Assembly (NCBI GenBank): GCA_038240835.1
Contig: JBBRGJ010000001.1
Span: 3,776-67,775 of the forward strand
Reading direction: 5' to 3'
DNA length: 64,000 nt
From: Bacteroidales bacterium
GTDB taxonomy: Bacteria; Bacteroidota; Bacteroidia; Bacteroidales; WCHB1-69
This document shows positions 1,885 to 52,992 of the stretch, piece after piece (within the stretch, counting starts at the first letter, position 1; each line of letters opens with the position of its first letter). Below the pieces are notes generated by a model. It did no database searches. It was not told the DNA's origin and saw only the letters and a list, made by a program, of their open reading frames with translations. The position numbers and the translations under genes were made by a program.

Positions 1885-4166
1885 AATTTAAACACCTAAT
1901 TTTTCTGTTGTTTTTGTCTATTATCGGCAAAAATGTGATGACTCAATCGATTCAAGGGGTGGTCTATGATTCCATTAGCAAAAAAAATGTTGCGGATGTT
2001 TATGTATTGGATGAAAAGTATAATTTAATCGCTGTCACAACCAATGAGGGTAGATTTACAGTAGATTTTATAGAAAATTCAACCATTCATTTTTCTCATG
2101 TAGGATTTCACTCTTTTCAAATAAACTTGAAACCCCAATCGGATGGTCTTTTAAAAATTGCATTGATTCCAATCACCACTATTTTGGACTCGGTGATTGT
2201 TTCTGCCGATTTGAATGGTTCGGGACAAAAAGAAGTGCCCATGTTTGCAAAAACTATTTCACAAAATGATCTGATGGAAACACCAGCGACAAACATCGAC
2301 CTTTTTTTGAGAAAAGTGCCCGGCGTGAATGTCAACCGCAGTTGGGGAATTTTTTCAAAAAATGCAAGCATTACCATGCGAGGTCTTACCAACAGCGCTT
2401 CTGTGTTGGTTGCTTTGGATGGAGTGCCTCTCAATAAGTTAGCAGGGGGAAGTGTGAATTGGAACATGATGTCTTCCTCTTCGCTGTCCAGAATTGAGGT
2501 GGTAAAAGGTTCAAATGCAGCTCAATATGGGATGAATGCCATGGGCGGATGTGTGAATTTGGTTGGAAGAAAACCACAAAAAAAGTTGGAAGGAACGTTG
2601 TCGCTGTTTGGAGGAACTTACAATACTGGTGGAGGAACTTTGTATTTGGGAAGTAGAAACGATGAACATCGAATTAAATATTATTGGAATTTAAACCTAA
2701 ATGCCAGGTCTGGCGATGGATATATCTACTTTCCCACCAACGCACCTTCGCCAATTGCACAGAAAACTTACCTAAAAGAGAAATCTGCCTTGTTTAACAG
2801 CGGCGTAACTTGGAATCGCAGACACTCTACTCAAATTGGAGCACTGTGGAGTCTCGACAAAAGGGGAGAAGGTATTAAAGTGTGGGAGAAGGATGGAAGT
2901 TATAATAGCTACAATACTAATATTTTATGGGTTAAACATAATTATACTACTTCCAAATTGAATCTTTCGTTGCTTGCTTTTTCTAACGTAGAAAATTACT
3001 TCCGACAAAACGAAAATGTGAATAATTCGGGACTTTATCAATACTCAGAAACAAATTCATTGAAAGGAGATCGGGGAGTGAAACTGATTGCGAATTGGCT
3101 TCCCTCTATTAAGAACAATACGCTCAGTGGTGGCGTGGAAATCCGCCAAGGTGATGTGAGAGCTTCTGATTTGTACTATACATCTACCGATAAAATTACC
3201 TTTAAAGGGAATTTGGTTTTTGCGGGAATGTTTTTGCAAGATGATATCAAAATTACAAGTAAATTGAATGCTAAAATGTCTTTCCGATACGATTGGGCTT
3301 GGTTTAATCATGGAAATCTCGTGGTGTCTAATCCAACGCCGGTAACACTCTTTTTAGTGCCAGTAGATCAAAATTTTGAAAATAAACAGTGGAATGGATT
3401 TAGTCCAAAACTCTCGTTGTCGTATGATTTTGCAAAATCTACGATGATTTATATTTCTGCTTCCAAAGGTTTTTTGCCTCCCAAAATTGAGGATATGACT
3501 AAGTCTGGAAAAATAAGAAAAGGGTTCAAAATGGCAAACCCAAATCTATTTCCCGAACGATTGGCAAATTATGAGTTGGGCGTGAAATCGGTGTGGTTCA
3601 AAAAATTGGAAGTTGAAGCGGTGGTTTACTACAGTCATGGAAATGATTTTCAATACTTTGTCTCACAAGGTGATTCTGTGGATGTTGGCGCTGATGCCTT
3701 ATTACCAGTATTGCAAAAGACGAACATTGCCAATGTGGATATTTTTGGAACTGATTTGTTGATTAATTGGAAACAGAGTAAGTATTTTAATTTTCAAGTT
3801 AATTACTCCTACAACTCCAGCAAAATTGGGTCTATGAGTAGCGAAAACCCTGAAGTGCTCAAACTGGAAGGCAAGTTCTTGGCTGAAGTTCCTACACATA
3901 TTTTGGGCGTTTACTCAGATTTTCATCTGAAAGGATTTAACCTCTCTCTGTCGTATAATTATAATGGGGATCAGTGGTACGACGACGAGAATGTAGAAAT
4001 AGTAAAAGCATACAGCCTTTTCAATAGCAAGTTGTCCAAACGGATAAGCAAAAATATTTGGGCCGCCATCAGCATCGAAGATCTCTTGGATAGCCACTAC
4101 ATCGACCGAAAAGGATATTTATCCCCCGGCAGATTTATCCTCGGAGAACTGAGAATCGAATTTTAA
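1881..4166 (+). CDS. TonB-dependent receptor with N-terminal carboxypeptidase-regulatory-like domain
   Basis: 761 aa with a signal peptide. CarbopepD_reg-like segment IQGVVYDS..EGRFTV, plug motifs (ITMRGL, VLVALDGVPLN) and a C-terminal barrel ending in aromatic F (ELRIEF). Confidence 0.85.
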   Translation: MKFKHLIFLLFLSIIGKNVMTQSIQGVVYDSISKKNVADVYVLDEKYNLIAVTTNEGRFTVDFIENSTIHFSHVGFHSFQINLKPQSDGLLKIALIPITTILDSVIVSADLNGSGQKEVPMFAKTISQNDLMETPATNIDLFLRKVPGVNVNRSWGIFSKNASITMRGLTNSASVLVALDGVPLNKLAGGSVNWNMMSSSSLSRIEVVKGSNAAQYGMNAMGGCVNLVGRKPQKKLEGTLSLFGGTYNTGGGTLYLGSRNDEHRIKYYWNLNLNARSGDGYIYFPTNAPSPIAQKTYLKEKSALFNSGVTWNRRHSTQIGALWSLDKRGEGIKVWEKDGSYNSYNTNILWVKHNYTTSKLNLSLLAFSNVENYFRQNENVNNSGLYQYSETNSLKGDRGVKLIANWLPSIKNNTLSGGVEIRQGDVRASDLYYTSTDKITFKGNLVFAGMFLQDDIKITSKLNAKMSFRYDWAWFNHGNLVVSNPTPVTLFLVPVDQNFENKQWNGFSPKLSLSYDFAKSTMIYISASKGFLPPKIEDMTKSGKIRKGFKMANPNLFPERLANYELGVKSVWFKKLEVEAVVYYSHGNDFQYFVSQGDSVDVGADALLPVLQKTNIANVDIFGTDLLINWKQSKYFNFQVNYSYNSSKIGSMSSENPEVLKLEGKFLAEVPTHILGVYSDFHLKGFNLSLSYNYNGDQWYDDENVEIVKAYSLFNSKLSKRISKNIWAAISIEDLLDSHYIDRKGYLSPGRFILGELRIEF

Positions 4167-4169
4167 ATA

Positions 4170-4676
4170 AGTATTGTTATTTCTTAATTCTGTCTTCTTG
4201 CATTTTTCTTCTTCCTTTGTGAAACTTTGTGCCTCCTTTGTCTACCTAGTATAATGGTAGATAAATGTTACTTCGTGGCACAGCATAAAGTTTTTATTAG
4301 TTGCACTTTTGGCTTCTTTTTTGTCACAAAAATCGATTGCTTCGCCTCAATTTTTCCGCCAAAAAATACAATTTATTTTCCATCTCTGGACCCGGGCGTT
4401 GCCCGAGCCTTATATAAGCTGGGCACTTCGACTTAGCTCAGCACACCGCTTTCAGCCCGTTTATCCTTCACTAGGGGACTAATTTGCCCCACTGTCCCGA
4501 TAATTATCAAGAGCAGTAAAGTTTCTAATTATAAAAGACTTCATATTTCTTACTTCTATATTCTATATTCTTGCTTCTTCTTTTTCAGTCTCGCTTCGCG
4601 CACTCATCACTCATCACTTCTTCTTCTTCAGTTTCACAACAAAAAATCATTTAACTAACATTTCAAAAAATTATTC
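4170..4676. repeat. modular intergenic repeat block A
   Basis: Contains ctttgtg-type module 4211-4240 and inverted hairpin module 4240-4266. Also a reverse-oriented cacttcgac..gctcag module near 4424-4446, cttacttct-type runs 4541-4580 and tctcgcttcgcg/catcactcatcac 4588-4618. Confidence 0.8.
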
Positions 4677-4684
4677 TAAATTTG
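4677..4684 (+). promoter_or_regulatory. Bacteroidota -7 box TAAATTTG upstream of wtpA
   Basis: Exact match to the TAnnTTTG consensus, 49 nt before ATG 4733. Confidence 0.45.
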
Positions 4685-4732
4685 TCATCAATTACCGATA
4701 TGTTTATTTTTACATGTCATAAATACTTGAAA

Positions 4733-5722
4733 ATGAAGAAATACAACACAGTTTTTATTAAAGGATTGATTTCTATTCCGCTCCTTGTGATGATTTTAAT
4801 CTTTTTTTCCAGTTGCAAACCAACAAAAAAAACGGACGATCTTTCGGGCGATCTGATTATCTTCCATGCAGGCAGTCTGTCGATGCCGTTGAAGGAGATT
4901 GCCGTTGAATTTAAAAAGGAATATCCCAACGCAAATATACTGTTTGAAGCGGCTGGAAGTGTCGAAAGTGCTCGTAAGATTACCGAATTAAACAAACCTT
5001 GTGATGTGATGCTCTCTGCTGATTATGCCGTCATTGATAAAATGTTGGTTCCCAAATATGCCGATTGGAATATTAAGTTTGCCTCGAATGAAATGGCCAT
5101 CGTCTTTTCCGAAAAATCAAAACGTAGTGGCGAAATAGATTCTGCAAATTGGATGGATGTTTTACTTGATAAGTCGGTTAAAATTGGTCGCTCCGACCCA
5201 AATTCTGATCCCTGTGGCTATCGGACTGTTTTGGTGGCTAAGTTGGCGGAATCATTTTACAAAAAAGCTGGATTAGCCAACCAATTGATGAACAAAGATC
5301 GGGAGAATATTCGTCCCAAAGAGACTGATTTGTTGGCTTTGTTAGAGACCAATACCATCGATTATATTTTCTTGTATCGTTCGGTGGCGGTTCAGCACAA
5401 CTTGAAATTTATCACTTTACCCGATCAAGTGAACCTTAAAAGTTCTGAATTTGAGGATTTATATAATAACGTTTCAACAAATATTAATGGAAAAAAACCT
5501 GGTGAAACCTACGAGCAAGTGGGAGAACCCATGGTGTATGGGGTCACAATATTGAATAATGCTCCCAATCGGAAATTAGCACTCGCTTTTGTCGAATTTC
5601 TGCTCACAAGCGACAAAGGCATGGCAATCATGGCAAAACTCGGTCAACCATCGGTGGTGCCTTCCTCTACATTTACCTTTGATAAAATTCCGGAAGAGTT
5701 GAAACGTTTTGCAAAGAAATAA
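4733..5722 (+). CDS. wtpA: tungstate/molybdate ABC transporter substrate-binding lipoprotein, WtpA type
   Basis: Motifs FHAGSL, EAAGS, DPNSDPCGYR and VYGVTILNNAPN match the WtpA-type oxyanion binder as I recall it. The lipobox FFSSC follows the internal ATG at 4733. The TTG at 4682 lies inside a promoter box. Confidence 0.7.
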   Translation: MKKYNTVFIKGLISIPLLVMILIFFSSCKPTKKTDDLSGDLIIFHAGSLSMPLKEIAVEFKKEYPNANILFEAAGSVESARKITELNKPCDVMLSADYAVIDKMLVPKYADWNIKFASNEMAIVFSEKSKRSGEIDSANWMDVLLDKSVKIGRSDPNSDPCGYRTVLVAKLAESFYKKAGLANQLMNKDRENIRPKETDLLALLETNTIDYIFLYRSVAVQHNLKFITLPDQVNLKSSEFEDLYNNVSTNINGKKPGETYEQVGEPMVYGVTILNNAPNRKLALAFVEFLLTSDKGMAIMAKLGQPSVVPSSTFTFDKIPEELKRFAKK

Positions 5723-5794: not shown

Positions 5795-5915
5795 GAAGTC
5801 TTGATTTTTTGGTTACTTTTGTTCGTAGAATTTTTATAATATAATGAACTCACGCTTTCGCCCCTTAAAAAGAACGGGGCTCAGTTGTATCAAGACAAAA
5901 GTGACACTAAAAAAG
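5795..5915. repeat. repeat modules inside the wtpA-wtpB spacer
   Basis: gtcttgattttttggttacttttg (5799-5822) and caagacaaaagtgacactaaaaa (5891-5913). The latter recurs at 55328-55350. Confidence 0.65.
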
Positions 5916-6017
5916 AAATAACTTCGGAGTAAATTGTGTTACGCTTTTTTGAAAAATTCTTGTCCTAATGATAATTCCTTGCGGTTTTAAGGAAACAGGT
6001 TAACTACAAAAAAATTA

Positions 6018-6803
6018 ATGATTAAAAAAATAGACACATTAAGTTTAATATTCACCTTTTTGGCGGGGTTGCTCTTGTTGTTTATAATTGCACCCGTTTT
6101 CGGAATGTTCTTATCAACCGCTCCCGTTGAGGTGTTTGATGTAGCTAAAGATGCGGAAGTACAGCGTAGTGTTGGTCTAACTTTATGGACATCTATGTTC
6201 GCCACACTGTTATTTTCTATTGGTGCAATTCCTTTGGCATATTTGCTGGCGCGAAAGAAATTTCCTCTCCGAAAGTTGCTCATTGGGATCATCAATATAC
6301 CTGTAATTATTCCACACTCTGCTGCCGGAATTGCTTTGTTAGGACTGGTTTCTAGAGATACTGTATTGGGCAAATTTGCCGAATCAATCGGTATTAGTTT
6401 TGTAAATCACCCCGCCGGAATTGTCATTGCAATGGCGTTTATCAGCATTCCGTATTTGATTAATTCTTCCATTGATGGGTTTAATAATGTACCCGAAAGA
6501 CTAGAGTTAGTGGCGCAGAATCTCGGTGCATCTAAGTCGAGGGCATTTTTCACCATCGCTCTGCCATTGGCTTGGCGCAATATTCTTACTGGACTGATAA
6601 TGATGTGGGGACGTGGATTGAGCGAATTTGGTGCTATTGTAATTATTGCCTATCACCCAATGGTTACTCCTGTGATGATTTTTGAACGATTTAACTCCTA
6701 TGGACTCGCTTATGCACGACCAGTTACCGTTCTTTTTATCATTATATGCCTGACTATTTTTGTTGGATTAAATTACCTCTCTAAAAGACGTCGAAATGCT
6801 TAA
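6018..6803 (+). CDS. wtpB: tungstate/molybdate ABC transporter permease
   Basis: 261 aa, 5-6 TM helices, binding-protein-dependent permease loop (SKSRAFFTIALPLAWRNI). Overlaps the ATPase gene by 8 nt. Confidence 0.75.
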   Translation: MIKKIDTLSLIFTFLAGLLLLFIIAPVFGMFLSTAPVEVFDVAKDAEVQRSVGLTLWTSMFATLLFSIGAIPLAYLLARKKFPLRKLLIGIINIPVIIPHSAAGIALLGLVSRDTVLGKFAESIGISFVNHPAGIVIAMAFISIPYLINSSIDGFNNVPERLELVAQNLGASKSRAFFTIALPLAWRNILTGLIMMWGRGLSEFGAIVIIAYHPMVTPVMIFERFNSYGLAYARPVTVLFIIICLTIFVGLNYLSKRRRNA

Positions 6804-7851
6804 ATTAGAAAATGTATGTAAATCTTTTAAAGAGTTTTCACTCAACAACGTTACTCTTTCGGTTGAGAAGGGCGCTTATTTTATGCTGATTGGAAGTTCG
6901 GGTTCGGGCAAAACTCTATTGTTAGATATTATTGCTGGATTAAACAATGCCGATAGTGGAACCATACTTGTCAACGGCACCAATGTAAATCTTCTGCCAA
7001 TTCAAAAACGAAATGTTGGGTTAGTCTATCAAAATCAAACTTTATTTCCTCATATGTCTGTGTATGAAAACATTGCTTATCCGCTAAAATGTAAAAAGGT
7101 TGACAAAAAATCAATTTCTAACATAATCCACGACATTGCAGTTGAAACAGAAATTGGTCATCTACTTTTGCGCCGTATTCAGGGACTTTCGGGAGGAGAA
7201 ATACAACGAGTTACCATAGCACGTGCATTGGTTAACAAACCAGATGTTTTGCTTTTAGACGAACCCTTGTCAATGCTCGATGTTCAGTTGAAAAGAGGAG
7301 TGAGCTCGCTGTTGAGAAAATTAAATCAGCAGGGACAAACCATCGTGCATGTCACCCACGACTACGAAGAAGCCCTTTCCTTAGCCAATACCATTGGAAT
7401 TATAGAAAAAGGGACACTTATTCAAACGGGAACAATCAAAGAAGTGCTTCAATATCCGAAATCCGAGTTTGTGGCCAATTTTGTGGGAATAAAGAACTTC
7501 TTCCACGGGAAAATTAAAGAAAAAACACAAAATCTTGCTGTTTTCGACTCGAATGGTGTAATCTTTCAAGTAGAAACCACTTCCAATATCGATGCAAAAG
7601 GTTTCTTAGTAGTGGATGCAAATAATATTGTTGTTTCTCATGAACCGATTTCGTCATTGTCCCCCAACACATTTGAAGGAACAATAGCTGAGGTTTTTCC
7701 AACCAGAAATGGAGTTGAACTAAAGATTGATATAGGTATAGAAATAATTGCACAAATACCCACACACTCATTCGAAAACCTTCCTTTTAAGACAAACTCA
7801 ACCGTCTGGATAACCCTAAATCCCAATGAAATAAGATTTTCAGAGCAATAA
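6796..7851 (+). CDS. wtpC: tungstate/molybdate ABC transporter ATP-binding protein with C-terminal TOBE/Mop-like domain
   Basis: Walker A GSSGSGKT, signature LSGGEIQR, Walker B LLLDEP. The C-terminal ~120 aa look like a TOBE domain. Confidence 0.8.
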   Translation: MLKLENVCKSFKEFSLNNVTLSVEKGAYFMLIGSSGSGKTLLLDIIAGLNNADSGTILVNGTNVNLLPIQKRNVGLVYQNQTLFPHMSVYENIAYPLKCKKVDKKSISNIIHDIAVETEIGHLLLRRIQGLSGGEIQRVTIARALVNKPDVLLLDEPLSMLDVQLKRGVSSLLRKLNQQGQTIVHVTHDYEEALSLANTIGIIEKGTLIQTGTIKEVLQYPKSEFVANFVGIKNFFHGKIKEKTQNLAVFDSNGVIFQVETTSNIDAKGFLVVDANNIVVSHEPISSLSPNTFEGTIAEVFPTRNGVELKIDIGIEIIAQIPTHSFENLPFKTNSTVWITLNPNEIRFSEQ

Positions 7852-7861
7852 TTTGAATGTA

Positions 7862-8232
7862 CTTGATTTCTTATATTCTTGTTACTTCGTTTCACCACTA
7901 AGGCACTTAGAGCACTTAGGAACATTTATCTAACAGCTTGCTGGTAGACTAAGACTTCTGACTTCTTTCTTCTCTTCTTCTTCTTCTTCCTTTGTGAAAC
8001 TTTGTGCCTTCTTTGTGTTACTTCGTGTTATAGCATAAACCTTTCAGCTGGGACACAAAAGACACAAAGAATACACAAAAGACACAAAGAAGATTTATCT
8101 AACAGCTTGCTAGGAAGACTAAGTTCACTAAGAATCATTTATCTACCAGCTTGCTGGTAGACTAAGACTTCTTAATTCTTACTTCTGTATTCCCTCTTCT
8201 TTTCACGTTTCACGGAAAATCGTTTCACTTTC
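7862..8232. repeat. modular intergenic repeat block B
   Basis: Three copies of atttatcta(a/c)cagcttgct(a/g)g(g/t)a(a/g)gactaag (7924-7953, 8093-8123, 8137-8166). Also the ctttgtg/cacaaag hairpin 7986-8092, cttaattcttacttctgtattc 8167-8192 and ttttcacgtttcacggaaaatcgtttcac 8200-8228. Confidence 0.85.
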
Positions 8233-8245
8233 TTGAAAAAAAGAC

Positions 8246-8253
8246 TACTTTTG
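8246..8253 (+). promoter_or_regulatory. -7 box TACTTTTG upstream of moeA
   Basis: TAnnTTTG match 19 nt before ATG 8272. Confidence 0.45.
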
Positions 8254-8271
8254 TACTTAAAACAAAAACGG

Positions 8272-9447
8272 ATGATTACCTTTGAAAAAGCCCTTCGTAC
8301 TGTCCTTGACTCATCTTTTTTAATTGGAGAAGAGGACGTCTCTATTTTGGATTCACTGAACCGAGTATTATCTCAAGACGTGGTTTCTGATATGAATATG
8401 CCGCCTTTCGATAAGTCGGCCATGGATGGTTATGCATGTCGATTTCAGGATGTTAAAAATGTATTGGAAGTAGTGGAGACAATTCCCGCAGGAAAATTCC
8501 CCGAAAAAGAAATTTTTGAAAATCAGTGTGCCAAAATAATGACCGGTGCCAAACTTCCAGTAGGAGCCGATTGTGTGATAATGGTGGAACATACTGAAAA
8601 CGTTGGAGAGGATAAAATTCGTTTTACCAAAGAGACAACCAACAAAAATATTTGCTATTTGGCCGAAGATGTAAAAGAAAACGATATTGTGCTCACCAAA
8701 GGAACGCTCGTCAAACCACAGCATATTGCTATTTTATCCGCAGTGGGCGCTGTTGCTGTACATGTGTTCAAAAAACCTCGAGTGGCTGTCATCGCGACTG
8801 GGGACGAATTGGTTGAACCTTTTTTTAAACCAGAAAAATCACAAATTCGAAACAGTAACGGTTATCAGATGGTGTCGCAAGTGACAAGTTGTGGAGGAAT
8901 TGCCAACTACATGGGAATTGTTCGCGACGATGAAGATTATTCCATTGCATTGATTTCCAAAGCGTTGATGGAGAATGATATTGTGCTCCTTTCGGGAGGA
9001 GTTTCAATGGGCGATTTCGATTTTGTGGGTGCAGCACTCAAAAAAAATGGAATCAATATCCTTTTTGATAGTGTGGCGATTCAACCGGGAAAACCAACAA
9101 CTTTTGGTGTGGGAAATAAAAAAATCTGTTTCGGAATGCCCGGAAATCCAGTCTCCTCATTTATTCAGTTTGAACTATTGGCAAAACCATTGATTCAAAA
9201 AATGAACGGTAGAGATGTCGAAATAGCTTCCCAGAAACTGCCATTGAAGAAAGATTTTTATAGAAAGAAAGCGGAACGATTGGCAATTGTGCCTAGTCAT
9301 ATTCATGCCGATTATACGGTAGAACCAGTAAATTATCATGGTTCGGCTCATATTTTCTCATTAGGAGATGCCGATTCTATCATGTTTATTCCAATGGGTG
9401 TGAATGAATTAAAAGCAGGAGATTTAGTAGATGTTAGACAAATTTAA
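8272..9447 (+). CDS. moeA: molybdopterin molybdenumtransferase MoeA
   Basis: MPPFDKSAMDGYA and PGNPVS motifs. The start is taken at ATG 8272 because the TTG at 8233 lies upstream of the predicted -7 box. Confidence 0.85.
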   Translation: MITFEKALRTVLDSSFLIGEEDVSILDSLNRVLSQDVVSDMNMPPFDKSAMDGYACRFQDVKNVLEVVETIPAGKFPEKEIFENQCAKIMTGAKLPVGADCVIMVEHTENVGEDKIRFTKETTNKNICYLAEDVKENDIVLTKGTLVKPQHIAILSAVGAVAVHVFKKPRVAVIATGDELVEPFFKPEKSQIRNSNGYQMVSQVTSCGGIANYMGIVRDDEDYSIALISKALMENDIVLLSGGVSMGDFDFVGAALKKNGINILFDSVAIQPGKPTTFGVGNKKICFGMPGNPVSSFIQFELLAKPLIQKMNGRDVEIASQKLPLKKDFYRKKAERLAIVPSHIHADYTVEPVNYHGSAHIFSLGDADSIMFIPMGVNELKAGDLVDVRQI

Positions 9448-10231
9448 TAGAGATATAAGCTATCTTCGGATATCTGTAACCGACCGATGCAATTTGCGGT
9501 GTACATACTGCATGCCCGAAGAGGGGATGAAACTGTTGTCGCACAATGATATACTTACGTTCGAAGAGATTGTGGAAATTGTTGAGGTAGGTGTGAAATT
9601 GGGAATTTCAAAAGTTAGAATTACGGGGGGCGAACCCTTGGTGAGAAAAGGAATTGTAGATTTGGTTTCCAAAATTGCTCAAATCGATGGAATCGAAGAT
9701 TTATCCATGACAACCAATGGGATTTTGTTGAAACAATTTGCCGCCGACCTGAAAAAAGCGGGCCTGCATCGCTTAAATATTAGTTTGGATACATTGGATG
9801 CCAATAAATATAGCGAAATTTCCCGTGGAGGAAAATTAAGCGAAGCATTGGAAGGAATTATGGAGGCTAAAAAGATTGGATTTTCGCCCATCAAAATCAA
9901 CTGTGTGATTGTTGAAAATGCGCAAGAACCCGATGCAATCGCGGTAAAAGAGTTTTCCGAAAAACATGGTTTTTTTGTGCGTTATATTCACCAGATGAAT
10001 TTAAATACAGGTGAATTTTCTGTCGTCGAAGGGGGCGATGGAGGTAATTGTATTAACTGCAGCCGCTTAAGATTAACTGCCAATGGAGATTTAAAACCTT
10101 GCCTTTTCAACGATATTTCGTTTAATGTGCACGAGTTTGGAATTGAAGAAGCTTATAAATTGGCCATCGAGAAGAAACCAAAGTGTGGAACTTACAATAA
10201 TACTGGAGAATTTTATAACATAGGAGGTTAA
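9431..10231 (+). CDS. moaA: GTP 3',8-cyclase MoaA, compact 266-aa form
   Basis: Radical-SAM CNLRCTYC, second cluster CxxCx13C (CINCSRLRLTANGDLKPC) and a C-terminal GG. Overlaps moeA by 17 nt. Confidence 0.85.
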   Translation: MLDKFNRDISYLRISVTDRCNLRCTYCMPEEGMKLLSHNDILTFEEIVEIVEVGVKLGISKVRITGGEPLVRKGIVDLVSKIAQIDGIEDLSMTTNGILLKQFAADLKKAGLHRLNISLDTLDANKYSEISRGGKLSEALEGIMEAKKIGFSPIKINCVIVENAQEPDAIAVKEFSEKHGFFVRYIHQMNLNTGEFSVVEGGDGGNCINCSRLRLTANGDLKPCLFNDISFNVHEFGIEEAYKLAIEKKPKCGTYNNTGEFYNIGG

Positions 10232-10684
10232 ATGAAACAATTTTCTCATACCGATAAACAGGGAAAAGCAAATATGGTAGATGTGGGAGATAAAATTCCA
10301 CAACTTCGCATAGCAAAAGCAACGGGTAAAATATTGCTTTCAGCTGATACACTGAAACTTATTCAGGAAAATCTGATGAAGAAAGGAGATGTGCTTACGA
10401 TTGCCAACATTGCTGGAATTCAAGCGGCAAAACAGACCTCTTCGCTCATTCCACTCTGTCACCCGTTGCAAATTACCAAAGCGGATGTAAAAACAACTCT
10501 TTGCGAAGATGGTGTGATTGCCACCAGCGAAGTGAGATGCATTGGACAAACAGGAATAGAAATGGAGGCACTCACAGGAGTAGGCATCGCATTATTGACC
10601 ATTTATGATATGTGCAAAGCTGTCGATAAATCGATGGTGATTGAAGGAATTAGACTCATTGAAAAAACAAAAACTGATATTTAA
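10232..10684 (+). CDS. moaC: cyclic pyranopterin monophosphate synthase MoaC
   Basis: FSHTDKQGKANMVDVGDK and LIPLCHPL motifs. The ATG abuts the moaA stop. Confidence 0.9.
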   Translation: MKQFSHTDKQGKANMVDVGDKIPQLRIAKATGKILLSADTLKLIQENLMKKGDVLTIANIAGIQAAKQTSSLIPLCHPLQITKADVKTTLCEDGVIATSEVRCIGQTGIEMEALTGVGIALLTIYDMCKAVDKSMVIEGIRLIEKTKTDI

Positions 10685-10685
10685 T

Positions 10686-11615
10686 ATGCAAACAATTAAG
10701 ATATTATCTGTAAATACATCAGAGAAAAAAGGCATTGTTAAAACACCCGTTGCTAAAATTGAACTTTCTGAAGTTGGAATTAAAAATGATGCTCATGCAG
10801 GACCTTGGCACCGACAAATAAGCCTTTTGGGAAAAGAGAGTTTTGATAAGTTCTCTATCGAAGCAAAACGTGAAATTCTTTTTGGCGAGTTTGCCGAAAA
10901 CATCACGACCGAAGGTGTCATTTTATATAAAACATCGCCGTTAGATATTTTTAAAAATAAAGAGTTGGAATTGATGGTCACACAAATTGGCAAAAAATGT
11001 CATGGCGATAGTTGTGCGATTTTTCGAGAAGTGGGCAATTGTGTGATGCCAAAAGAGGGGATATTTGCCAAAGTGATTCGCGGTGGCGAAATGAAAGCCG
11101 GCGACGTGTTAGAATATCACCCAAAAATATATAAAGTGAAAGTGATAACGCTTAGCGATCGTGCCAGCAGAGGCGAATATGAAGATTTAAGCGGTCCGGA
11201 AGTTGCCAAAATAGTCCAAACTTATTTCGAAAAAGCAAACAAACTGGTCACCACAGAAGTGGTAGTCATTCCTGACGATGAGGAACAATTGAAACAGATT
11301 TGTATGATGGATAAAAATCATTACGACGTTATTATTACCACCGGCGGAACAGGAATTGGGCCAAGAGACATAACTCCTGACGTAATTCGACCTCTTTTAG
11401 ATAAAGAAATTCCAGGAATTATGGAAATAATCCGTGTTCGTTATGGGATGGAAAAACCCAATGCATCGCTCAGCCGAAGCATCGCTGGAGTGATGGGAAG
11501 CACCTTGGTTTACACCTTGCCAGGAAGCGTAAAAGCCGTAAGAGAATACATGGATGAAATCCTGAAAACACTCGAACACCTTGTCTACATGCAATATGGG
11601 TTGGATGCTCATTAA
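10686..11615 (+). CDS. MOSC domain fused to a MogA/MoaB-type molybdopterin adenylyltransferase domain
   Basis: N-terminal MOSC-like region (GEFAENITTEG). C-terminal MoaB/Mog region (ITLSDRASRGEYEDLSGP, ITTGGTGIGPRDITPD). ATG 10686 lies 2 nt after the moaC stop. Confidence 0.75.
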   Translation: MQTIKILSVNTSEKKGIVKTPVAKIELSEVGIKNDAHAGPWHRQISLLGKESFDKFSIEAKREILFGEFAENITTEGVILYKTSPLDIFKNKELELMVTQIGKKCHGDSCAIFREVGNCVMPKEGIFAKVIRGGEMKAGDVLEYHPKIYKVKVITLSDRASRGEYEDLSGPEVAKIVQTYFEKANKLVTTEVVVIPDDEEQLKQICMMDKNHYDVIITTGGTGIGPRDITPDVIRPLLDKEIPGIMEIIRVRYGMEKPNASLSRSIAGVMGSTLVYTLPGSVKAVREYMDEILKTLEHLVYMQYGLDAH

Positions 11616-11657
11616 TCTTTGAAAGCCAATTGACAATAATATAAAAGTGCATATTTT

Positions 11658-12404
11658 TCACCAATTATCAAACACTGATTTAGATTCTACTGCATTTTCC
11701 ACATCATCCGGCAGTTGATAAAAGAAATCTATATTGGTTTGTTTTTCCAACTCATCTATGGAAACCACAAAAAAGGAGAGTGGTTTGGTGGACCCTTCGT
11801 TTTTTAGGATAAAAGCTATGGCTTTGGCTGGTTTGGGAGGATCGTAGAATAAAATTGCTTTGTAAAATCTGGTTGGAGCGCCAATTTTACCTTTGCCAAT
11901 GTATTCGATAAAGGAATCTAATATCGGACCAGTGGCTACGTAAATTGTACCATATTTTTCGGCCCAAGTTCTCACTTTTTCTTCTAAGTTTTTCCATATT
12001 ACTCGGTTGAATTGAGGTTTTTGTGGACTCATATTCGAGAAATAAAACGACTCGGTCATGGTTTGCATACTTCTGCTCATATCGGCCGCTGGAGCCAGGT
12101 GCCCTTTGTCGTAACCCGATTTTTTATAATCATTATTGGAACCTTGACCTGTTCTGGAAATTTCGGGATCGGCCACAAATTTATTGGTTCGTTTAAACTT
12201 CACACCATCCGATGCACTAAGAGGATATGCTACCCAATATGCTTGCTTGTGAGTGGTGGAGAACGAAATCTGCATTCCCGTTTTCTTTAATATCTGCTGA
12301 TCGGTAAATGTGCTTTTGGGAAGCTCATACTGAATGATGTTTTGAGAAAAAAGCAGACTTGGGATAAAGTAGATAATACTTAGGAATAACCATCTTTTTT
12401 TCAT
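11658..12404 (-). CDS. secreted DNA/RNA non-specific endonuclease (Serratia nuclease / DRGH family)
   Basis: Signal peptide. DKGHLAPAADM (DRGH-type active site) and SNMSPQ..FNR motifs. Confidence 0.8.
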   Translation of the reverse strand: MKKRWLFLSIIYFIPSLLFSQNIIQYELPKSTFTDQQILKKTGMQISFSTTHKQAYWVAYPLSASDGVKFKRTNKFVADPEISRTGQGSNNDYKKSGYDKGHLAPAADMSRSMQTMTESFYFSNMSPQKPQFNRVIWKNLEEKVRTWAEKYGTIYVATGPILDSFIEYIGKGKIGAPTRFYKAILFYDPPKPAKAIAFILKNEGSTKPLSFFVVSIDELEKQTNIDFFYQLPDDVENAVESKSVFDNW

Positions 12405-12497
12405 GCGAATGTTCTTTTTTTTGTAAAAGTATCCATTTTCTGAGAGATTAGTTGTAATTTTAACATCAAAAACAATTTAGTACATAATATTTTAACG

Positions 12498-14570
12498 ATG
12501 AAAAAATTAATTCTATTGGTTTGTGCTTTTACAACAGTCTGTGTATTAGCTCAAAACACAAAAACGATAGGTTTAGCCAAAGGCTTAAAAGATAAAAGTA
12601 TGAATGATAAAATTACACCTGAGTTTTTGTGGCAACTTGGTAGGGCTGGAGATATTAAGATTTCACCCGACGGAACAAAAGTCCTCTACGGAGTAACTAC
12701 TTACAGCATTTCTGCAAACAAAGGAAACCGTGAATTGTATGTCATTTCTGTGGATGGTGGTGAACCTAAACGGTTGACAGAAACTCCAAACAGTGAATTC
12801 AACGCTATTTGGCGTCCCGATGGAAAAAAAATTGGATACATCTCTGCCGAAGGCGGAACTCCTCAAATTTGGGAGATGAATCCTGATGGAACCGAAAAAG
12901 TTAAAATTTCCAACATCGCCAGTGGCGTGAATGGATTTGCTTATTCGCCAACGATGAAAAATATTTTGTTTACGACGGAAGTGAAACTTGATGCAACAGT
13001 TCAAGATACTTATCCCGATTTGCCAGAAGCAAATGCGATGATTTACACCGAATTGATGTATCGCCACTGGGATGCGTGGTCGGATCAATCGTATAGCCAT
13101 ATTTTTGTTCTTTCTTACCCAATTCCTGCCGTTAATCAAGGCAAAGATATTATGCCAAACGAGAGATGGGACGCACCAATTACCCCAGATGGCGGAATGG
13201 AACAAGTTGCATGGGATAATACTGGAAATAAAATTGCCTATACGTCTAAAAAATCTTTTGGAAAAGAGTATGCTACATCAACTAATTCTGATATCTATTT
13301 GTATGATTTAGTGTCGGATAAAACCACCAACATAAGTGCTCCTAATCCTGGATACGATATGGATCCTGTATTTTCTCCAGATGGAAAATATATTGTTTGG
13401 AATAGTATGAAAACAGCGGGTTTTGAGTCGGATAAGAAAAGAATCATCATCTATAATCTTGCGACTTCCAAAGCGGAAGATTTTTCGGCAAATTTTGATC
13501 AAAGTTCTTCCAGTTTTGTCTGGAGCAACGATAGCAAATCACTTTATTTCATCAGCGGTATTCATGCTACGTATCAATTGTATCAATTAGAAATTGGTAA
13601 GAAAAAAATAACTCAAATTACCCAAGGAAGACACGATTACACGGAATTGCAATTTGCTAAAAACAATAAATTGATTGGTTCAAAAATGTCGATGTCTATG
13701 CCTTCCGAAATTTTTTCGATAGAAGTAAAAACTGGCGTTGAAAAACAAATTTCGAATGTGAATACTGAAAAAATGGCAAGAGTGGCCAAAGGGAAAGTCG
13801 AAGAGCGTTGGATTGAAACTACCGATGGCAAGAAAATGTTGACATGGGTTATCTATCCTCCAAATTTTGATCCTAACATAAAATATCCAACCTTGCTTTA
13901 TACTCAAGGCGGACCTCAAAGTGCCATCAGTCAATTTTGGTCGTATCGTTGGAATTTCCAAATTATGGCTGCCAATGGTTACATTATCGTTGCTCCTAAC
14001 AGAAGAGGATTGCCAACATTTGGACAGGAATGGAATGACCAAATTAGCCAAGATTATGGTGGCCAAAATCAAGTTGACTGTCTTACTGCCATCGATACTT
14101 TGTGTAAAGAACCATTTGTAAATAAAGATAAATTAGGTGCTGTGGGCGCCAGTTATGGTGGATTCTCTGTATATTGGTTGGCAGGAAATCATAACAAACG
14201 TTTCAAAGCATTTATCTCACATTGTGGCATGTTCAATTTCGAAAGTTGGTATGGCACTACCGAGGAATCTTTCTTTGCTAATCACGATTTAGGTGGTGCT
14301 TATTACAACAAAAATCGTCCAAAAAGTTACGATTTCTCTCCACATCGTTTCATCGGTAATTGGGATACTCCAATACTAGTAATTCATGGCGGAAACGACT
14401 TCAGAATCCCTTACACCGAAGGAATGCAAGCATTTAATGCCGCTCAAATGAAAGATATTCCAAGTAAATTTTTGTTCTTCCCCGAGGAGTCACATTTTGT
14501 CCTAAAACCACAAAACTCGATTCTCTGGCAACGCGAATTTTTTAAATGGTTTGACTCTTATTTGAAATAA
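12498..14570 (+). CDS. S9 family serine peptidase (beta-propeller plus alpha/beta hydrolase)
   Basis: 690 aa with a signal peptide. Nucleophile motif GASYGGF, C-terminal D and H (HGGNDFR, EESHF). Confidence 0.85.
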   Translation: MKKLILLVCAFTTVCVLAQNTKTIGLAKGLKDKSMNDKITPEFLWQLGRAGDIKISPDGTKVLYGVTTYSISANKGNRELYVISVDGGEPKRLTETPNSEFNAIWRPDGKKIGYISAEGGTPQIWEMNPDGTEKVKISNIASGVNGFAYSPTMKNILFTTEVKLDATVQDTYPDLPEANAMIYTELMYRHWDAWSDQSYSHIFVLSYPIPAVNQGKDIMPNERWDAPITPDGGMEQVAWDNTGNKIAYTSKKSFGKEYATSTNSDIYLYDLVSDKTTNISAPNPGYDMDPVFSPDGKYIVWNSMKTAGFESDKKRIIIYNLATSKAEDFSANFDQSSSSFVWSNDSKSLYFISGIHATYQLYQLEIGKKKITQITQGRHDYTELQFAKNNKLIGSKMSMSMPSEIFSIEVKTGVEKQISNVNTEKMARVAKGKVEERWIETTDGKKMLTWVIYPPNFDPNIKYPTLLYTQGGPQSAISQFWSYRWNFQIMAANGYIIVAPNRRGLPTFGQEWNDQISQDYGGQNQVDCLTAIDTLCKEPFVNKDKLGAVGASYGGFSVYWLAGNHNKRFKAFISHCGMFNFESWYGTTEESFFANHDLGGAYYNKNRPKSYDFSPHRFIGNWDTPILVIHGGNDFRIPYTEGMQAFNAAQMKDIPSKFLFFPEESHFVLKPQNSILWQREFFKWFDSYLK

Positions 14571-14752
14571 AAAAAGATAAGCTTTCTGGGTGAGTTATGG
14601 ATCTTCTGGTTCGTGTAGTTTATCCAAAAAAGTCTTCATTGTATAAACGTAAAATGGATTTCTGTTTTTGAGAGAAAACAATGAATATCCTTTTACTTGC
14701 AGATTAATTGTTTTAAAAATAGTTGGGCAAACCAAACAGGGAAAAAATGTGT

Positions 14753-15544
14753 ATGAAAAAATGGATGTTATTATTGTTGGTGGTTTTTGGCATGAATCAA
14801 CTTTTTGCCGGATGGAAATTTATCGAAAAAAAGTCCAATCCACAAGGACTGACTTCGTTTGATACCATTGTTGTTCAGAATAATAAAATGCGCTCTGGCT
14901 CCAAAGAGGCAACTTATATCTACGATTTGGATGGTCAGAAGATAACGGTTATGAATAACTTTTATCGTACTTATTGGACGGGAACTCCTGATCAATATAG
15001 AGAAGGTGTTTTGTCAGGATTGAAAGAACAAATCGAGCTAATTATTAATCGTTTACCGAAAGAGAAACAGGTTGAATCGAGAGCAAAATTAGAGGGGATA
15101 ATGCAAGAAATGCAAAATCCGACCGCTGGTAAATCGGCTGGAATCGTAGTGGATGTGAAAAAAATTATTGACAAAATCATGATTTTGGGATACAATACTC
15201 AACGATACGAATTTTGGATTGAGGGGAAAAAGAAACTTTCCATTTGGGTGTCCGAGAAAATATTAATCAACAACGATTTTAATTTGGTGAAATTCGGACA
15301 GCTTATGCAACGGTTGATGTCTAACAATCCTAAGTTAGCGATAAAATCATCGGCTCAGTACATTGATGTGCTTAAAAAAGGTTATCCATTAAAAACAATA
15401 GAATACCTTGGAGGCGGAGAGATTGCCAGCGAATTGGTTTTTGCTAAAAAAGGAAATTATTCCAACTCTTTATTTGCGCCCTCATCTCAATTTAAAATCG
15501 TTCCTCTTGCTACACTTATTAAATCTATGAAAATAAAAGGATAA
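14753..15544 (+). CDS. hypothetical secreted protein
   Basis: Signal peptide MKKWMLLLLVVFGMNQLFA begins at an internal ATG (14753; alternative 14747). No confident family. Confidence 0.6.
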   Translation: MKKWMLLLLVVFGMNQLFAGWKFIEKKSNPQGLTSFDTIVVQNNKMRSGSKEATYIYDLDGQKITVMNNFYRTYWTGTPDQYREGVLSGLKEQIELIINRLPKEKQVESRAKLEGIMQEMQNPTAGKSAGIVVDVKKIIDKIMILGYNTQRYEFWIEGKKKLSIWVSEKILINNDFNLVKFGQLMQRLMSNNPKLAIKSSAQYIDVLKKGYPLKTIEYLGGGEIASELVFAKKGNYSNSLFAPSSQFKIVPLATLIKSMKIKG

Positions 15545-15551
15545 TATAGAA

Positions 15552-16286
15552 ATGAAAAAGTTAAATTTAATAATCCTATTAATCTCAATTTTTTACCTGA
15601 ATTATAGTTTCGCTCAATGCCCCAGAGGAAGAGTAAATAGTGCTAACTGTTGCGGAGCTCATTACGATGCCAATAAAAACTTTATTTGTGATTACTCTGA
15701 AGTAAAAACAGTGGTGGAATCTGAAAAAGAGCCAGAAAAAGAGGTAAAAAAAGTTGAGGTCGTATCTGTTGAAAAAAATCTAACTGTGGCTCAGCACGAT
15801 AAATCAAAATCGTGTGCTGGTTGTAAACATAAATGTTCAGAATCATCGGAGAACGTTGAAGCAGTTGCCTCTTCGGAAGAGGATGAGTTCAAATCGATGG
15901 ATGAAGAGGTAGATACTACTTCTGTTACGGCTACGGAGCTCGAAGCAATTGATAAACCGAAAGAAAAACCATATAGTTTGATTTTTATCTCTCTACTTAC
16001 CTTTGGACTATATGCATTTACATGGGCATTGGCTAAATTAAAAAAGATTAAACTATCCTTACACCGTAAGATTTGGAATGTAATTTTGTTCCTGACTTTT
16101 TTGGTCTCTTGCCTTTTCGGGTTTTTCCTCGTAATCCAACTTAATTATGATTTCGTAATGGATTGGTATAAAACTCTCATTTATTGGCATGTTCAATTTG
16201 GTATTGCTATGACCATTATTGCTTTCTTTCACGCAATATGGCACACCAAATATTACATCAATATGTTCAAACAGAAAAAGAATTAA
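15552..16286 (+). CDS. hypothetical membrane protein: signal peptide, Cys-rich head, acidic linker, His-containing TM bundle
   Basis: 244 aa. CPRGRVNSANCCGAHYDANKNFIC, then an E/K/S-rich region with CAGCKHKC, then 3-4 TM helices containing HVQFG..FFHAIWH. Confidence 0.6.
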   Translation: MKKLNLIILLISIFYLNYSFAQCPRGRVNSANCCGAHYDANKNFICDYSEVKTVVESEKEPEKEVKKVEVVSVEKNLTVAQHDKSKSCAGCKHKCSESSENVEAVASSEEDEFKSMDEEVDTTSVTATELEAIDKPKEKPYSLIFISLLTFGLYAFTWALAKLKKIKLSLHRKIWNVILFLTFLVSCLFGFFLVIQLNYDFVMDWYKTLIYWHVQFGIAMTIIAFFHAIWHTKYYINMFKQKKN

Positions 16287-16299
16287 ATTCAAGTTCAAC

Positions 16300-16625
16300 A
16301 CTGAGACATTTATCTACCAGCTTGCTAGGTAGATTTATCTAACAGCTTGCTGGTAGACTAAGATTTCTGTATTTTTCTTCCTTTGTGAAACTTTGTGAAA
16401 CTTTGTGTCTTCTTTGTGTCACTTTGTGTAATAGCATAAACTTTTCAGCTATGCCACAAAATACACAAAGAAGGCACAAAAGACACAAAGACCACTTTTT
16501 TCTTACTTCTTACTTTTTATTTCTTATTATTTCTTACTTCATTTCACGTTTCACTTTTCACGTTTTGTTCACTGAGCCTGTCGAAGTGCACCTTCTTCTT
16601 CTTCTTCCTCTTCCTCACTTCTATT
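16300..16625. repeat. modular intergenic repeat block F
   Basis: Hairpin module copies 16308-16332 and 16333-16362. Also the ctttgtg/cacaaag hairpin 16377-16494, cttactt runs, ttcacg runs and tcactgagcctgtcgaagtgcac 16569-16591. Confidence 0.85.
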
Positions 16626-19001: not shown

Positions 19002-19860
19002 CAATTGAACGCGGATTTTTTTGGGGAATAGAGATAGCAGAGAACGCGGATGACGCGGATTTCTTATGATGAACGCGGATTTCTTTTTTTGGATGTTTGA
19101 GGATTTTTAGATAGCAATTGAACGCGGATGACGCTGATTTCTTATGATTAACGCGGATTTTTTTTTGAATGGGCACAAGTTGATCAAAGGTTCTTCGCTA
19201 TTTTGGTGTTTGCCTGCACTCAGATAATCAGATCACTATTTCGCCACTAAGCCATTTATCTACCAGCTTGCGAGGTAGACCAAGATTACTTAAGTTTTTT
19301 TGTCACACTCATTCTCCGCGGCGAAGTGAAGTGTCTCCACCCAAGGCTCTTCTTTATTCTTAATTCTGTATTCTTACTTCTTTCTTTCTTCTCCTTCTTC
19401 TTTTCACCTTTCACGGAAAACCGTTTCACCTTCTTATTTCTTACTTCTGTATTCTTTCTTCTTTCTTCTTCGTTTCACTCCCGATAGGGTTCAGGGTTCA
19501 TGGTGCAGGGTTCAGGGTTTGGTTTTAGTTCTACTTTATTACACGTTCTTCTTGTTTATTGAATTCTTCCTTCCTCTTCTTCTTCTTCTTCATTTCACCT
19601 TTGGTCACTGAGCCTGTCGAAGTGCACTTTTCACGTTTTACCACTAAGGCATTTATCTACCAGCATGCTAGGTAGACTAAGAACACTAAGATTCATTTAT
19701 CTACCAGCCTGCTAGGTAGACTAAGATTTCTTTTCTTCTGTATTCTTTCTTCTTTTTCTTTTTGTCACACTGAGCCTGTCGAAGTGCACCTCCCACCCTT
19801 TGGTCACTGAGCCTGTCGAAGTGCACCTTTCACCTTTCACCTTTCACCCTTCCTCTTTCC
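18996..19860. repeat. modular intergenic repeat block G (865 bp, between convergent topB and the M14 gene)
   Basis: aacgcggat units 18996-19166; hairpin module at 19254-19284, 19651-19681 and 19695-19725. gtcac(ac)tgagcctgtcgaagtgcac at 19604-19627, 19764-19789 and 19803-19826. Also tcagggt heptads 19487-19517 and ttcac / cttactt runs. Confidence 0.85.
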
Positions 19861-23024: not shown

Positions 23025-23111
23025 CTGTAAATATCAATTCAATAATACTCTAAAATTGGAACCAAAACAAGCCAAAAGATGTCGGGCCCGAAGAGGGGAG
23101 GCGGGGGCGGA

Positions 23112-23207
23112 GTCTGTAAAGTCGAAAGTCTATCAAGTAAAAAGTTTGTAAAGTAAAAAGTCTATCAAGTAGAAAGTTTATAAAGTAGAAAGTCTATAAA
23201 GGAAATA
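23112..23207 (+). repeat. tandem repeat: six 16-bp units (three 32-bp units)
   Basis: gtctgtaaagtcgaaa gtctatcaagtaaaaa gtttgtaaagtaaaaa gtctatcaagtagaaa gtttataaagtagaaa gtctataaaggaaata. Confidence 0.85.
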
Positions 23208-24001
23208 GCCATCAACAGCCATTAGAGATGGCCGATCATAAAGTTAGTAGAGATTTTTTACCAATTTAAAAAAAATACCAAATCATGAAAAGCACCCTCA
23301 GAGCCACACTCTATAGACTTTAAGGACTTTACAGCCTTTCCACTTTAGGTTTTACTACCATTTGAGTGGAAGAGAGCACAAATATCAAAATTGTTATTTA
23401 AAAAATGTCATGCTGAGATTTCATCCAATAAAAATTTGGAAATAAAGGGTTGATGACAGTGAGAAAATTTACCGCTATTTGGGGCTTAGAATAAGCATTG
23501 TGGCTGTTTTAGCGAGCGTCATACTGTCACGATAGCTATCGTGATAGTCGAAGTATTAAAGAAAGAGGTTTATGAAAGCACTTTTTACAGTCCTTCGATT
23601 AACTCAGGAAGACCAGAAAAAGCAACATTCCAATTCTGTCATTGGTAGTTTATCGAAGTCGACATAGTGAGAATATGAAGAAGAATAATAACCGCAGAGC
23701 TCGCTGAGAGAAGGAAAAAAGTTGAGGACGCAGAGGCGCGAAGCGTGGAAAAGAAGAAAAGGAATACAGAATTAAGAATACAGAAGTAAGAAATCTAAGT
23801 CTACCTAGCAAGCTGGTAGATAAATGTCTTAGTGGTGTCTTTCCTTCTCTTCTCTTTTGTACCTTTTGCTACTTTTGTGGTTCAAAAAAAAAACAAAAAG
23901 CGCGAAGCGCCACCGGAAAACCCCAGCATCGCTTCGCGCCCTTTATAAACTTTACAGACTTTATAGACTTTAAGAACTTTCCACTTTAAGGACTTTATTC
24001 C
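23208..24001. repeat. modular intergenic repeat block H (rest of the 1.1-kb ORF-free region)
   Basis: Reverse-oriented modules: ctatagactttaaggactttacag 23311-23334, gaatacagaagtaag 23761-23793, hairpin module 23795-23825 and ctttataaactttacagactttatagactttaag 23941-23975. Also gtcat(g/a)ctg variants at 23407 and 23519. Confidence 0.8.
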
Positions 24002-49024: not shown

Positions 49025-49345
49025 AGGATTCAGGGTGCAGGGTTTAGGGTTCAGGGTTTCAGGGTTCAAGGTTCAGGGTCAATGGTTTAAGGTTCATGGT
49101 GCAGGGTTTGGTTTTAGTTCTACTTTATTACACGTTCTTCTTATTTATTGTATTCTTTCTTTCACTTCTTGGTTTTGTCACACTGAACAAAGTGAAGTGT
49201 CTCTTCTTACTTCTTAATTCTTTCTTTCTTCTTTTCACGTTTCACTTTTCACAACTCAAAAACACAAAGTCCTCTATAAACTACTTCTTACTTCTTACTT
49301 CTGTATTCTTTCTTCTTCTCACTCGTCACTTCTTCTTTCATATTC
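49025..49345. repeat. modular intergenic repeat block L
   Basis: tcagggt-type heptads 49029-49110; a segment 49091-49160 near-identical to 19495-19570. Also gtcacactgaacaaagtgaagtgtctc 49177-49203 plus cttactt and ttcac runs. Confidence 0.85.
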
Positions 49346-52925: not shown

Positions 52926-52992
52926 TACAAACAATGAACATTGCTTTGTTAGCAAAAAAAAACAAAATACAATATTGAAAAACAAAACACGT

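Follow-up and report, generated by a model that had tools for sequence, protein, structure and literature searches.

We know of no case outside REP/RAYT in which the spread of repeats of 20-30 nt has been resolved. Small dispersed repeats (SDRs), reportedly described by Elhai et al. 2008 in Nostoc punctiforme and other filamentous cyanobacteria, are said to be intergenic units of about 21-27 nt, some of them hairpin-forming. They are also said to be nested in other repeats and in tandem heptamer arrays, and their mobility was reportedly inferred from comparisons of filled and empty sites; to our knowledge, no enzyme has been assigned to them. Elements of the IS200/IS605 group carry two hairpins, and HUH/Y1 enzymes use hairpin ends and make no target duplication.

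REP sequences, REPINs and BIME mosaics are short extragenic palindromes of 20-40 nt mobilised by RAYT (Y1 HUH) transposases (PMC3116915; PMC3733652). The tetranucleotide GTAG (or CGTC) ends the REP, and RAYT recognises and cleaves GTAG (PMC3733652), while in REPINs two REPs in inverted order form a hairpin and replicate as one unit (PMC3116915). Tandem heptamer arrays of the LSSR/STRR type are found in Cyanobacteria, Beggiatoaceae and some Bacteroidetes; they are intergenic and gene-oriented, close relatives lack them in the orthologous spacers, and contigs are interrupted by them (PMC4679880). For classical MITEs (Correia, Nezha, RUP and others), the comparison of filled and empty sites is the standard evidence of mobility (PMC3184786).

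Here we analyse the window, i.e. the whole 64-kb stretch of DNA from an uncultured Bacteroidales bacterium, with emphasis on a short hairpin found inside another repeat at 4241-4265. Our preferred reading, held with about as much confidence as doubt, is that this represents one copy of a non-autonomous insertion unit of very small size, set at a fixed heptamer register without duplication. The unit, its target word, the orientation rule and natural filled/empty pairs are all readable from sequence, which makes the question of how such repeats spread testable. There is also a practical side, since these modules break every short-read assembly of the organism and its relative, limiting MAG contiguity for the group.

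An interrupted palindromic module

The first-pass annotation of this DNA had pointed to 4211-4290 as one module cleanly inserted in another, and the comparisons behind that proposal hold. The segment 4211-4240 is identical to 7986-8015 at 29 of 30 positions, a match with no comparable counterpart in 100 shuffles, and direct comparison of 4266-4290 with 8016-8040 gives 21 identities in 25, the first 12 nt being identical and all 4 mismatches lying beyond them. Similarity also reaches upstream of 4211, with 85% identity over 61 nt between 4181-4241 and 7956-8016. The two halves of the host sequence are contiguous at 8015/8016, as had been claimed, and also at 16416/16417 and in a metagenome locus (L010); when 4181-4320, 7956-8070, 16357-16472 and the L010 locus were aligned with MAFFT, a single clean gap of 25 columns appeared opposite 4241-4265 in all three empty copies. 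The insert had further been described as a reverse-oriented, slightly diverged copy of a hairpin module. This is correct: on the minus strand it reads TTTATCTACCATTATACTAGGTAGA, identical to the hairpin consensus TTTATCTACCAGCTTGCTAGGTAGA at 21 of 25 positions, and all 4 differences fall in the loop.

Concerning the junctions of 4241-4265, host-type identity to the empty copy extends up to both of them, over 12/12 positions at one and 11/12 at the other. One base (T on the plus strand) can be assigned to either side of the junction, hence any target duplication is at most 1 nt, and the duplication that an insertion might have left was indeed absent beyond 1 nt, as no longer direct repeat occurs at 4240/4266. 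The 3' flank of the unit is the host CAAAG, where canonical copies instead carry CTAAG. Flanks that are host-type up to both junctions, with CAAAG and not CTAAG on the 3' side, indicate that only the 25-nt core was transferred. The comparison sets a filled site known from one assembly against three empty copies, of which one belongs to a different organism.

The interrupted module is the left arm of an imperfect palindrome of ~105 nt, here called module A, which is built of CTTTGTG/CACAAAG words; the 4211 copy is without the right arm. Folded as DNA, the complete copies give -22.3 kcal/mol (z = -5.0) for 7986-8092 and -28.6 kcal/mol (z = -6.6) for 16381-16493, and the latter is 89% identical to 7990-8090 over 101 nt. 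In metagenomes, 25 loci match CTTTGTG-nnn-CTTTGTG..AGCATAAA, mostly as generic CTTTGTG word arrays of other Bacteroidota. Three of these (L010, L011 and L015) are the only ones closely similar to the 4211 module; they are all empty and non-orthologous, and GGCACAGCATAAA of the 4266-4290 arm is also common to them.

Two other histories of the site were rejected. Precise deletion from an ancestrally filled module would have to be reconciled with flanking direct repeats of at most 1 nt and an empty outgroup copy, and local template switching as the source of the insert with the fact that neither arm occurs nearby and the insert matches a dispersed family.

We judge it very improbable that low-complexity sequences merely fell side by side by chance or that the assembly process created the arrangement. 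What speaks for such an explanation is the single assembly with a filled site, together with the short-read contigs of the organism and its relative, which break at ~4211 and ~4590. However, neither the two flank matches nor the hairpin match turned up in shuffled sequence, and independent Logan contigs (SRR19962012), whose ends lie inside hairpins, agree with the window at 100% over 5906-7953 and 8117-16363, hairpin copies included. A chimeric join would moreover bring in a canonical hairpin, whereas the 4241 copy has a unique loop, and the window genes are intact.

Structure and conservation of the hairpin unit

The unit consists of a TTTA tail, a 6-bp stem (TCTACC/GGTAGA) and a loop of 8-9 nt, adding up to 24 or 25 nt, with one single hairpin per 25 nt. 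Ten copies occur in the 64-kb window, all intergenic (Table 1), those at 4241 and 23800 on the minus strand. The stem of the bare unit is weak (-3.5 to -3.7 kcal/mol as DNA); the 4241 unit, also with 6 bp, folds at -3.6 kcal/mol as DNA, and inclusion of its host flanks brings this to 10 pairs and -4.8 kcal/mol.

Table 1. Hairpin units, word array and host palindromes in the window.
Feature	Position	Strand	Details
Left part, interrupted CTTTGTG-word arm (truncated module A copy)	4211..4240	+	29/30 vs 7986-8015
Inserted 25-nt hairpin unit	4241..4265	-	TTTA tail, TCTACC arm, ATTATACTA loop, GGTAGA arm (minus-strand reading); gap in 3 empty relatives
Arm continuation after the insert, up to AGCATAAA loop motif	4266..4290	+	21/25 vs 8016-8040
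CACTAAG / CACTTAG word array carrying the 7925 hairpin	7896..7924	+	
Hairpin unit, 24-nt subtype	7925..7948	+	inside CA^CTAAG, after three CACT(A/T)AG words
Complete module A	7986..8092	+	4 CTT(T/C)GTG words, loop AGCATAAAC..TTTCAGC, 4 CACAAAG-type words; empty site 8015/8016
Hairpin unit, variant 3' arm GGAAGA	8094..8118	+	left flank GA, right flank CTAAG
Hairpin unit, 24 nt	8138..8161	+	in CA^CTAAG
Head-to-tail doublet of abutting hairpin units (25 nt, then 24 nt)	16309..16357	+	between CA and CTAAG
Second complete module A	16381..16493	+	one extra CTTTGTGAAA word; empty site 16416/16417
Hairpin unit	19255..19279	+	in CA^CCAAG
Two hairpin units, 19652-19676 and 19696-19720	19652..19720	+	each in CA^CTAAG, one CACTAAG word between
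Hairpin unit	23800..23824	-	in CA^CTTAG; co-oriented with flanking minus-strand genes

An exact-pattern scan of one genome per species (GTDB representatives, which exclude the source genome) found the unit in three other MAGs, with 6 matches in total: Bacteroidales CAUVYH02, Bacteroidota ELA627 and a Lentimicrobiaceae MAG. All three share the flanking words with the window, as well as several of its other modules, and the 24-nt subtype is 100% identical in ELA627, whose M14 peptidase ortholog is only 66% identical. A catalogue of 18 copies was drawn from the window, these three species-representative MAGs and the relative with 87% identity described below. Across it, substitutions number 3/270 in tail and arms versus 11/144 in the loop (Fisher p = 9e-4, for copies that are not phylogenetically independent). 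A near-invariant tail and stem next to a varying loop is the pattern expected of a protein-recognised hairpin.

Searches for the hairpin in viral contigs gave 0 matches, and 7880-8230 had no match to plasmids (distant BLAST). Against Rfam 15, the whole window had 0 matches at the gathering threshold, and 4150-4740 likewise had 0 at E <= 1. The TCTACC/GGTAGA stem is followed by CTAAG or CAAAG (on the plus strand at 4262, TAAATG) and by no T-run, hence the unit is not an intrinsic terminator.

The two length subtypes have markers that are mostly linked: the 25-nt subtype has C at position 9 and an additional A at position 19, whereas the 24-nt subtype has A at position 9 and lacks the additional base. 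Each subtype is present in several species, and the copies at 8094 and 8138 of the window carry recombinant combinations of the markers.

Register and orientation of the unit within heptamer words

Canonical copies have the arrangement ...CACTAAG-G-CA[unit]CTAAG-AA-CACTAAG-ATT-CA[unit]CTAAG..., in which CA and CTAAG, the two flanks of a unit, make up exactly the word CACTAAG. Removal of the unit restores a regular CACTAAG word array, showing that the unit splits the word between CA and CTAAG. Among the 18 catalogued copies, 16 directly precede C-N-N-A-G of the split word, in one orientation relative to the word, and the remaining two directly precede another unit. The conserved flank is mainly the 3' one, C(T/A)AAG; on the left, CA precedes 14 of the 18 copies, and variants of this flank are GA at 8094 and TA in the Lentimicrobiaceae MAG (L007) and in one copy at L006.

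The 4241 copy splits CA^CAAAG, a CACAAAG word of the palindrome arm, with the same orientation relative to the word, and the unit is reversed there because the words in the left arm are reversed. The first-pass annotation had left it to be seen whether the junction recurs. It does: the heptamer is split at CA^C(T/A)AAG, with nearly all of the 17 other copies in the same register and orientation. The chance that the 4241 copy alone meets both register and orientation within a 45-nt arm was estimated at ~4/90.

It should be noted that the CACTAAG-like words of the window's intergenic spacers almost all adjoin a hairpin (the exception is 19217, ~40 nt upstream of the 19255 unit), and most copies could therefore have been spread within a larger composite module. 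L007 does contain a CACTAAG array free of hairpins, and only the 4241 copy sits clearly outside the usual CACTAAG array context.

Orthologous spacers in a close relative

A close relative found in ERR12726940-42 shows 87.1% nucleotide identity to the window, and four orthologous spacers were compared, each in part. Downstream of modC, the relative carries CACTAAGGCA[25-nt unit][24-nt unit], where the window has CACTAAGG-CACTTAGAG-CACTTAGGAA-CA[24-nt unit]CTAAG, i.e. only the 24-nt unit. The extra 25-nt unit directly precedes the counterpart of the 7925 copy, with exact unit boundaries; the spacer also differs by two words, and this difference in the number of flanking words means that two events are needed there. 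Downstream of a 244-aa gene, the window has the 16309 doublet and the relative a different module and no hairpin, the difference being a larger word-plus-hairpin block and not a bare unit. Upstream of moeA, two units lie within 180 nt in the window and none within 240 nt in the relative, and upstream of wtpA the module content differs. The contigs of the relative end at window position ~4211 (L036) and resume at ~4596 (L038), so that the 4241 site falls between them. The evidence of insertion thus consists of a single clean paralogous case together with a single orthologous one.

In L034 and L035, which hold more distant relatives of the TonB receptor (71-79% amino acid identity), hairpins and arrays are lacking. 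L033 ends 33 nt past the stop codon, inside a CACTAAG array.

Some further features of these spacers deserve mention. In the moeA spacer, the relative retains the 40 nt adjacent to the start codon (window 8180-8271 versus L041:1-240 and L042:1-95). They include TACTTTTG at 8246-8253, which we take to fit the Bacteroidetes -7 motif TAnnTTTG. All of the sequence farther upstream is rearranged, the relative having two modules swapped in order and a ~95-nt tandem duplication. Upstream of wtpA lies a 25-nt block containing GTCTCGCTTCGCG (4582-4606), which is missing from a paralogous CT-rich run (49277-49330) and has a TTCTTAC run in its place in the spacer of the relative (L038:1-40). The GC-richer stretch 4378-4512 was considered as a riboswitch upstream of wtpA and rejected, the fold not being significant (z = -1.0); a search of the window with just its first 22 nt (4388-4409) showed these to be unique there. 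The short-read contigs L001, L002, L033, L036, L037, L038 and L040 end inside or beside repeat modules. As contigs of the organism and its relatives break at these modules, the repeats limit MAG contiguity for the clade.

A mosaic of intergenic modules

About 10 spacers of the window are mosaics of short modules, among them TTCTTAC-type runs, TTTCACG words, CACTGAGCCTGTCGAAGTGCAC, GGGTTCA arrays and a second word-built palindrome family with GTGACGA/GGGTAAC arms. We read the hairpin unit as sitting in a fast-shuffling mosaic of intergenic repeats. A systematic search of the window for flanks contiguous in one copy and split in another recovered the 4241 case and, for other modules, 19293-19348, 4582-4606, 19603-19624 and 52800-52855. 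Further filled/empty pairs, which the first-pass annotation had suggested looking for, thus exist, several of them in the window, but they involve modules other than the hairpin; being filled or empty is a general property of the mosaic and not unique to the hairpin.

Since other modules and larger blocks are also present or absent, general recombination or template switching is a live alternative, which we consider possible although clearly less probable than the insertion of a unit. It would dispense with dedicated mobility: slippage, template switching and ectopic gene conversion between word-sharing arrays would shuffle modules in hypervariable mosaics, and the hairpin would have been copied from a CACTAAG array into a CACAAAG array, given that only one base distinguishes the two words. 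The paralogous presence and absence of the four blocks just listed fits such a process, as do the module swap upstream of moeA, the tandem duplication and the word-plus-hairpin block difference at the 244-aa gene in the 87% relative. Slippage is known to lengthen and shorten tandem heptamer repeats (PMC4679880), and donor and recipient have CA on one side and AAG on the other in common. Yet the homology between the canonical donor and the 4241 recipient amounts to only 1-2 nt at the junction, no donor flank was co-converted, as the recipient retains CAAAG, and the transferred tract is exactly the conserved core. Slippage, moreover, leaves unexplained why tail and stem are near-invariant across species whereas the loop drifts.

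The location of the units relative to genes bears on a second alternative. Arrays begin 10-75 nt past stop codons. Only 1 of the 10 window copies, that at 4241, is antisense to the neighbouring genes; of the other 9, 6 lie between co-directional genes in the same orientation and 3 between convergent genes. Hairpin and words could on this account be selected functional motifs, either sites for nucleoid or regulatory proteins or REP-like 3'-UTR stabilisers of mRNA, which ordinary duplication and deletion rearrange, the 4241 copy being selected or tolerated. Besides the gene-related placement, the sequence identity of the unit in several species, the constrained stem and tail with a free loop, and the spacing of module A words by ~10-11 nt, one helical turn, would all agree with it. 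We nevertheless find it improbable. Occupancy differs at three orthologous spacers between 87%-identical relatives, which is hard to reconcile with a locus-specific function, and the antisense 4241 copy, the 0 Rfam matches and the lack of a T-run, and so of an intrinsic terminator, also count against it; selection alone does not explain a copy inside another repeat. More generally, a hypervariable arrangement combined with a conserved unit sequence speaks for continual re-copying under a constraint on sequence or structure, or for selection.

The remaining modules are summarised here as observations in their own right. The second palindrome family spans ~215-230 nt at 55040-55272 and 56707-56923, with partial copies at 52650-52930 and 51110-51250. 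Its left arms consist of GTGACGA / GGGTAAC words and its right arms of their complements (arms of 26-37 nt, 78-100% complementary), small GAGCGAAGCTC and GTCGCTTCGCG hairpins lie within it, and comparison with the sequence from 51170 onward shows presence or absence of a 56-nt block (52800-52855). Heptamer arrays of GGGTTCA / GGGTTTA / GGTGCA, telomere-like words, are found at 19486-19520 and 49025-49110, and the 96-nt block that follows both is 86% identical between the sites. Six tandem 16-nt units, AGTCTATAAAGTAGAA-like, occupy 23111-23206 and have inverted partners 171 and 794 nt away (23326-23345 and 23949-23997); units and partners bracket an ORF-free stretch at ~23200-23940, with a longest ORF of 53 aa. 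The ACTTTATAGACTTTA words of these units also appear just upstream of genes in the MAG loci L004 and L007. At 19003-19165, a run of repeated AACGCGGAT / GACGCGGAT words has its start right at the stop codon of the topoisomerase gene. Lastly, in the Lentimicrobiaceae MAG (L007:3560-3640), one copy of a CACACTGAGC..TCGAAGTGCAC module has ~24 extra nt (TTCGCCTGTCCAGCTTTAACGGGA) where the others have CTG, which may be a second case of small nested insertion, in another module.

Proposed mechanism of insertion

Under our preferred reading, the unit would have been inserted into a CACAAAG word, within the left arm of a decayed copy of the ~105-nt word-built palindrome. Insertion would use the fixed register and orientation of the heptamer word CA^C(T/A)AAG and make no target duplication (at most 1 nt), and the unit could also insert beside an existing copy, yielding abutting head-to-tail doublets. 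We infer that it would be moved in trans by a sequence- and structure-specific enzyme acting on the folded single strand. The leading candidate would be an HUH/Y1 transposase of the IS200/IS605-RAYT kind, because such enzymes use hairpin ends and make no target duplication, and because the unit, given the 1-nt junction ambiguity, can be written as ending exactly in GTAG.

The first-pass annotation had suggested a very small insertion element or a product of site-specific recombination. Of this suggestion, the discrete unit and the clean, reproducible junction stand, whereas the trans-acting enzyme that it proposed to search for was not among the 40 window ORFs scanned, in which Pfam found housekeeping genes only and no transposase or recombinase domain.

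A more far-reaching version, which we think doubtful, is that uncultured, Lentimicrobiaceae-like Bacteroidales harbour an undescribed system in which a 24/25-nt hairpin, base-for-base conserved across genera, is inserted at a fixed heptamer register by an enzyme that is not a recognised RAYT/IS200 transposase, the arrays and palindromes being products or footprints of that machinery. If true, this would amount to miniature mobile DNA of a new type, whose target code can be read.

Comparison with known systems

The hairpin unit shares with REPs its size (24/25 nt with a 6-bp stem) and its intergenic abundance of 10 copies in 64 kb, and with REP/BIME mosaics the mixing with other motifs downstream of genes and the lack of target duplication. 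It ends in GGTAG(A), but this GTAG is paired with CTAC inside the stem, where the REP tag is unpaired. The unit is also AT-rich with a weak 6-bp stem, its sequence is conserved across species whereas REPs are species-specific, and no RAYT / Y1 domain occurs in the 40 window ORFs. In contrast to REPINs, its doublets (8094/8138, 16309/16334, 19652/19696, L006 and L038) are all direct, with no inverted pair. Miniature elements of the IS200/IS605 type have distinct subterminal hairpins at both ends, where the hairpin unit has one. Such elements insert 3' of a short specific sequence; the unit has CA on its left in most copies and GA or TA in some, and its conserved flank is mainly 3', C(T/A)AAG.

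Resemblance to classical MITEs is found in module A (~105 nt, a highly stable palindrome, several copies). The 25-nt unit itself is 4-10 times smaller than any MITE in the table of PMC3184786, has no terminal inverted repeats beyond its own stem, no direct-repeat target duplication and no known parent IS, and thus shows none of the classical MITE features (TIR plus target duplication, about 50-500 bp). It looks like one of the smallest mobile DNA units known.

The word arrays of the window are, like LSSR/STRR arrays, intergenic, made of 7-nt words, oriented with the gene upstream or downstream, lacking from the orthologous spacer in close relatives and prone to break assemblies. Reports of the latter cover arrays only, whereas here a hairpin unit splits a word; the words are moreover CACTAAG, CACAAAG, TTCTTAC, GTGACGA and others, not TAACTGA, and they form long palindromes. 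A literature search on repeats in Lentimicrobiaceae/Bacteroidetes returned only the TAACTGA heptamer paper (PMC4679880), and no published description was found in Bacteroidota of this hairpin, the word-built palindromes or the word-register insertion rule.

Closest in behaviour are the SDRs, as the hairpin unit is nested in module A, splits heptamers and shows orthologous presence and absence. The differences are that the phylum is another one, the sequence is unrelated, and a handful of sites stands here in place of a genome-wide survey; the fixed CA^C(T/A)AAG register is a specific rule not attributable to SDRs. The likeness is one of function, the unit working like an SDR with neither sequence homology nor a taxon in common, and hence not one of descent.
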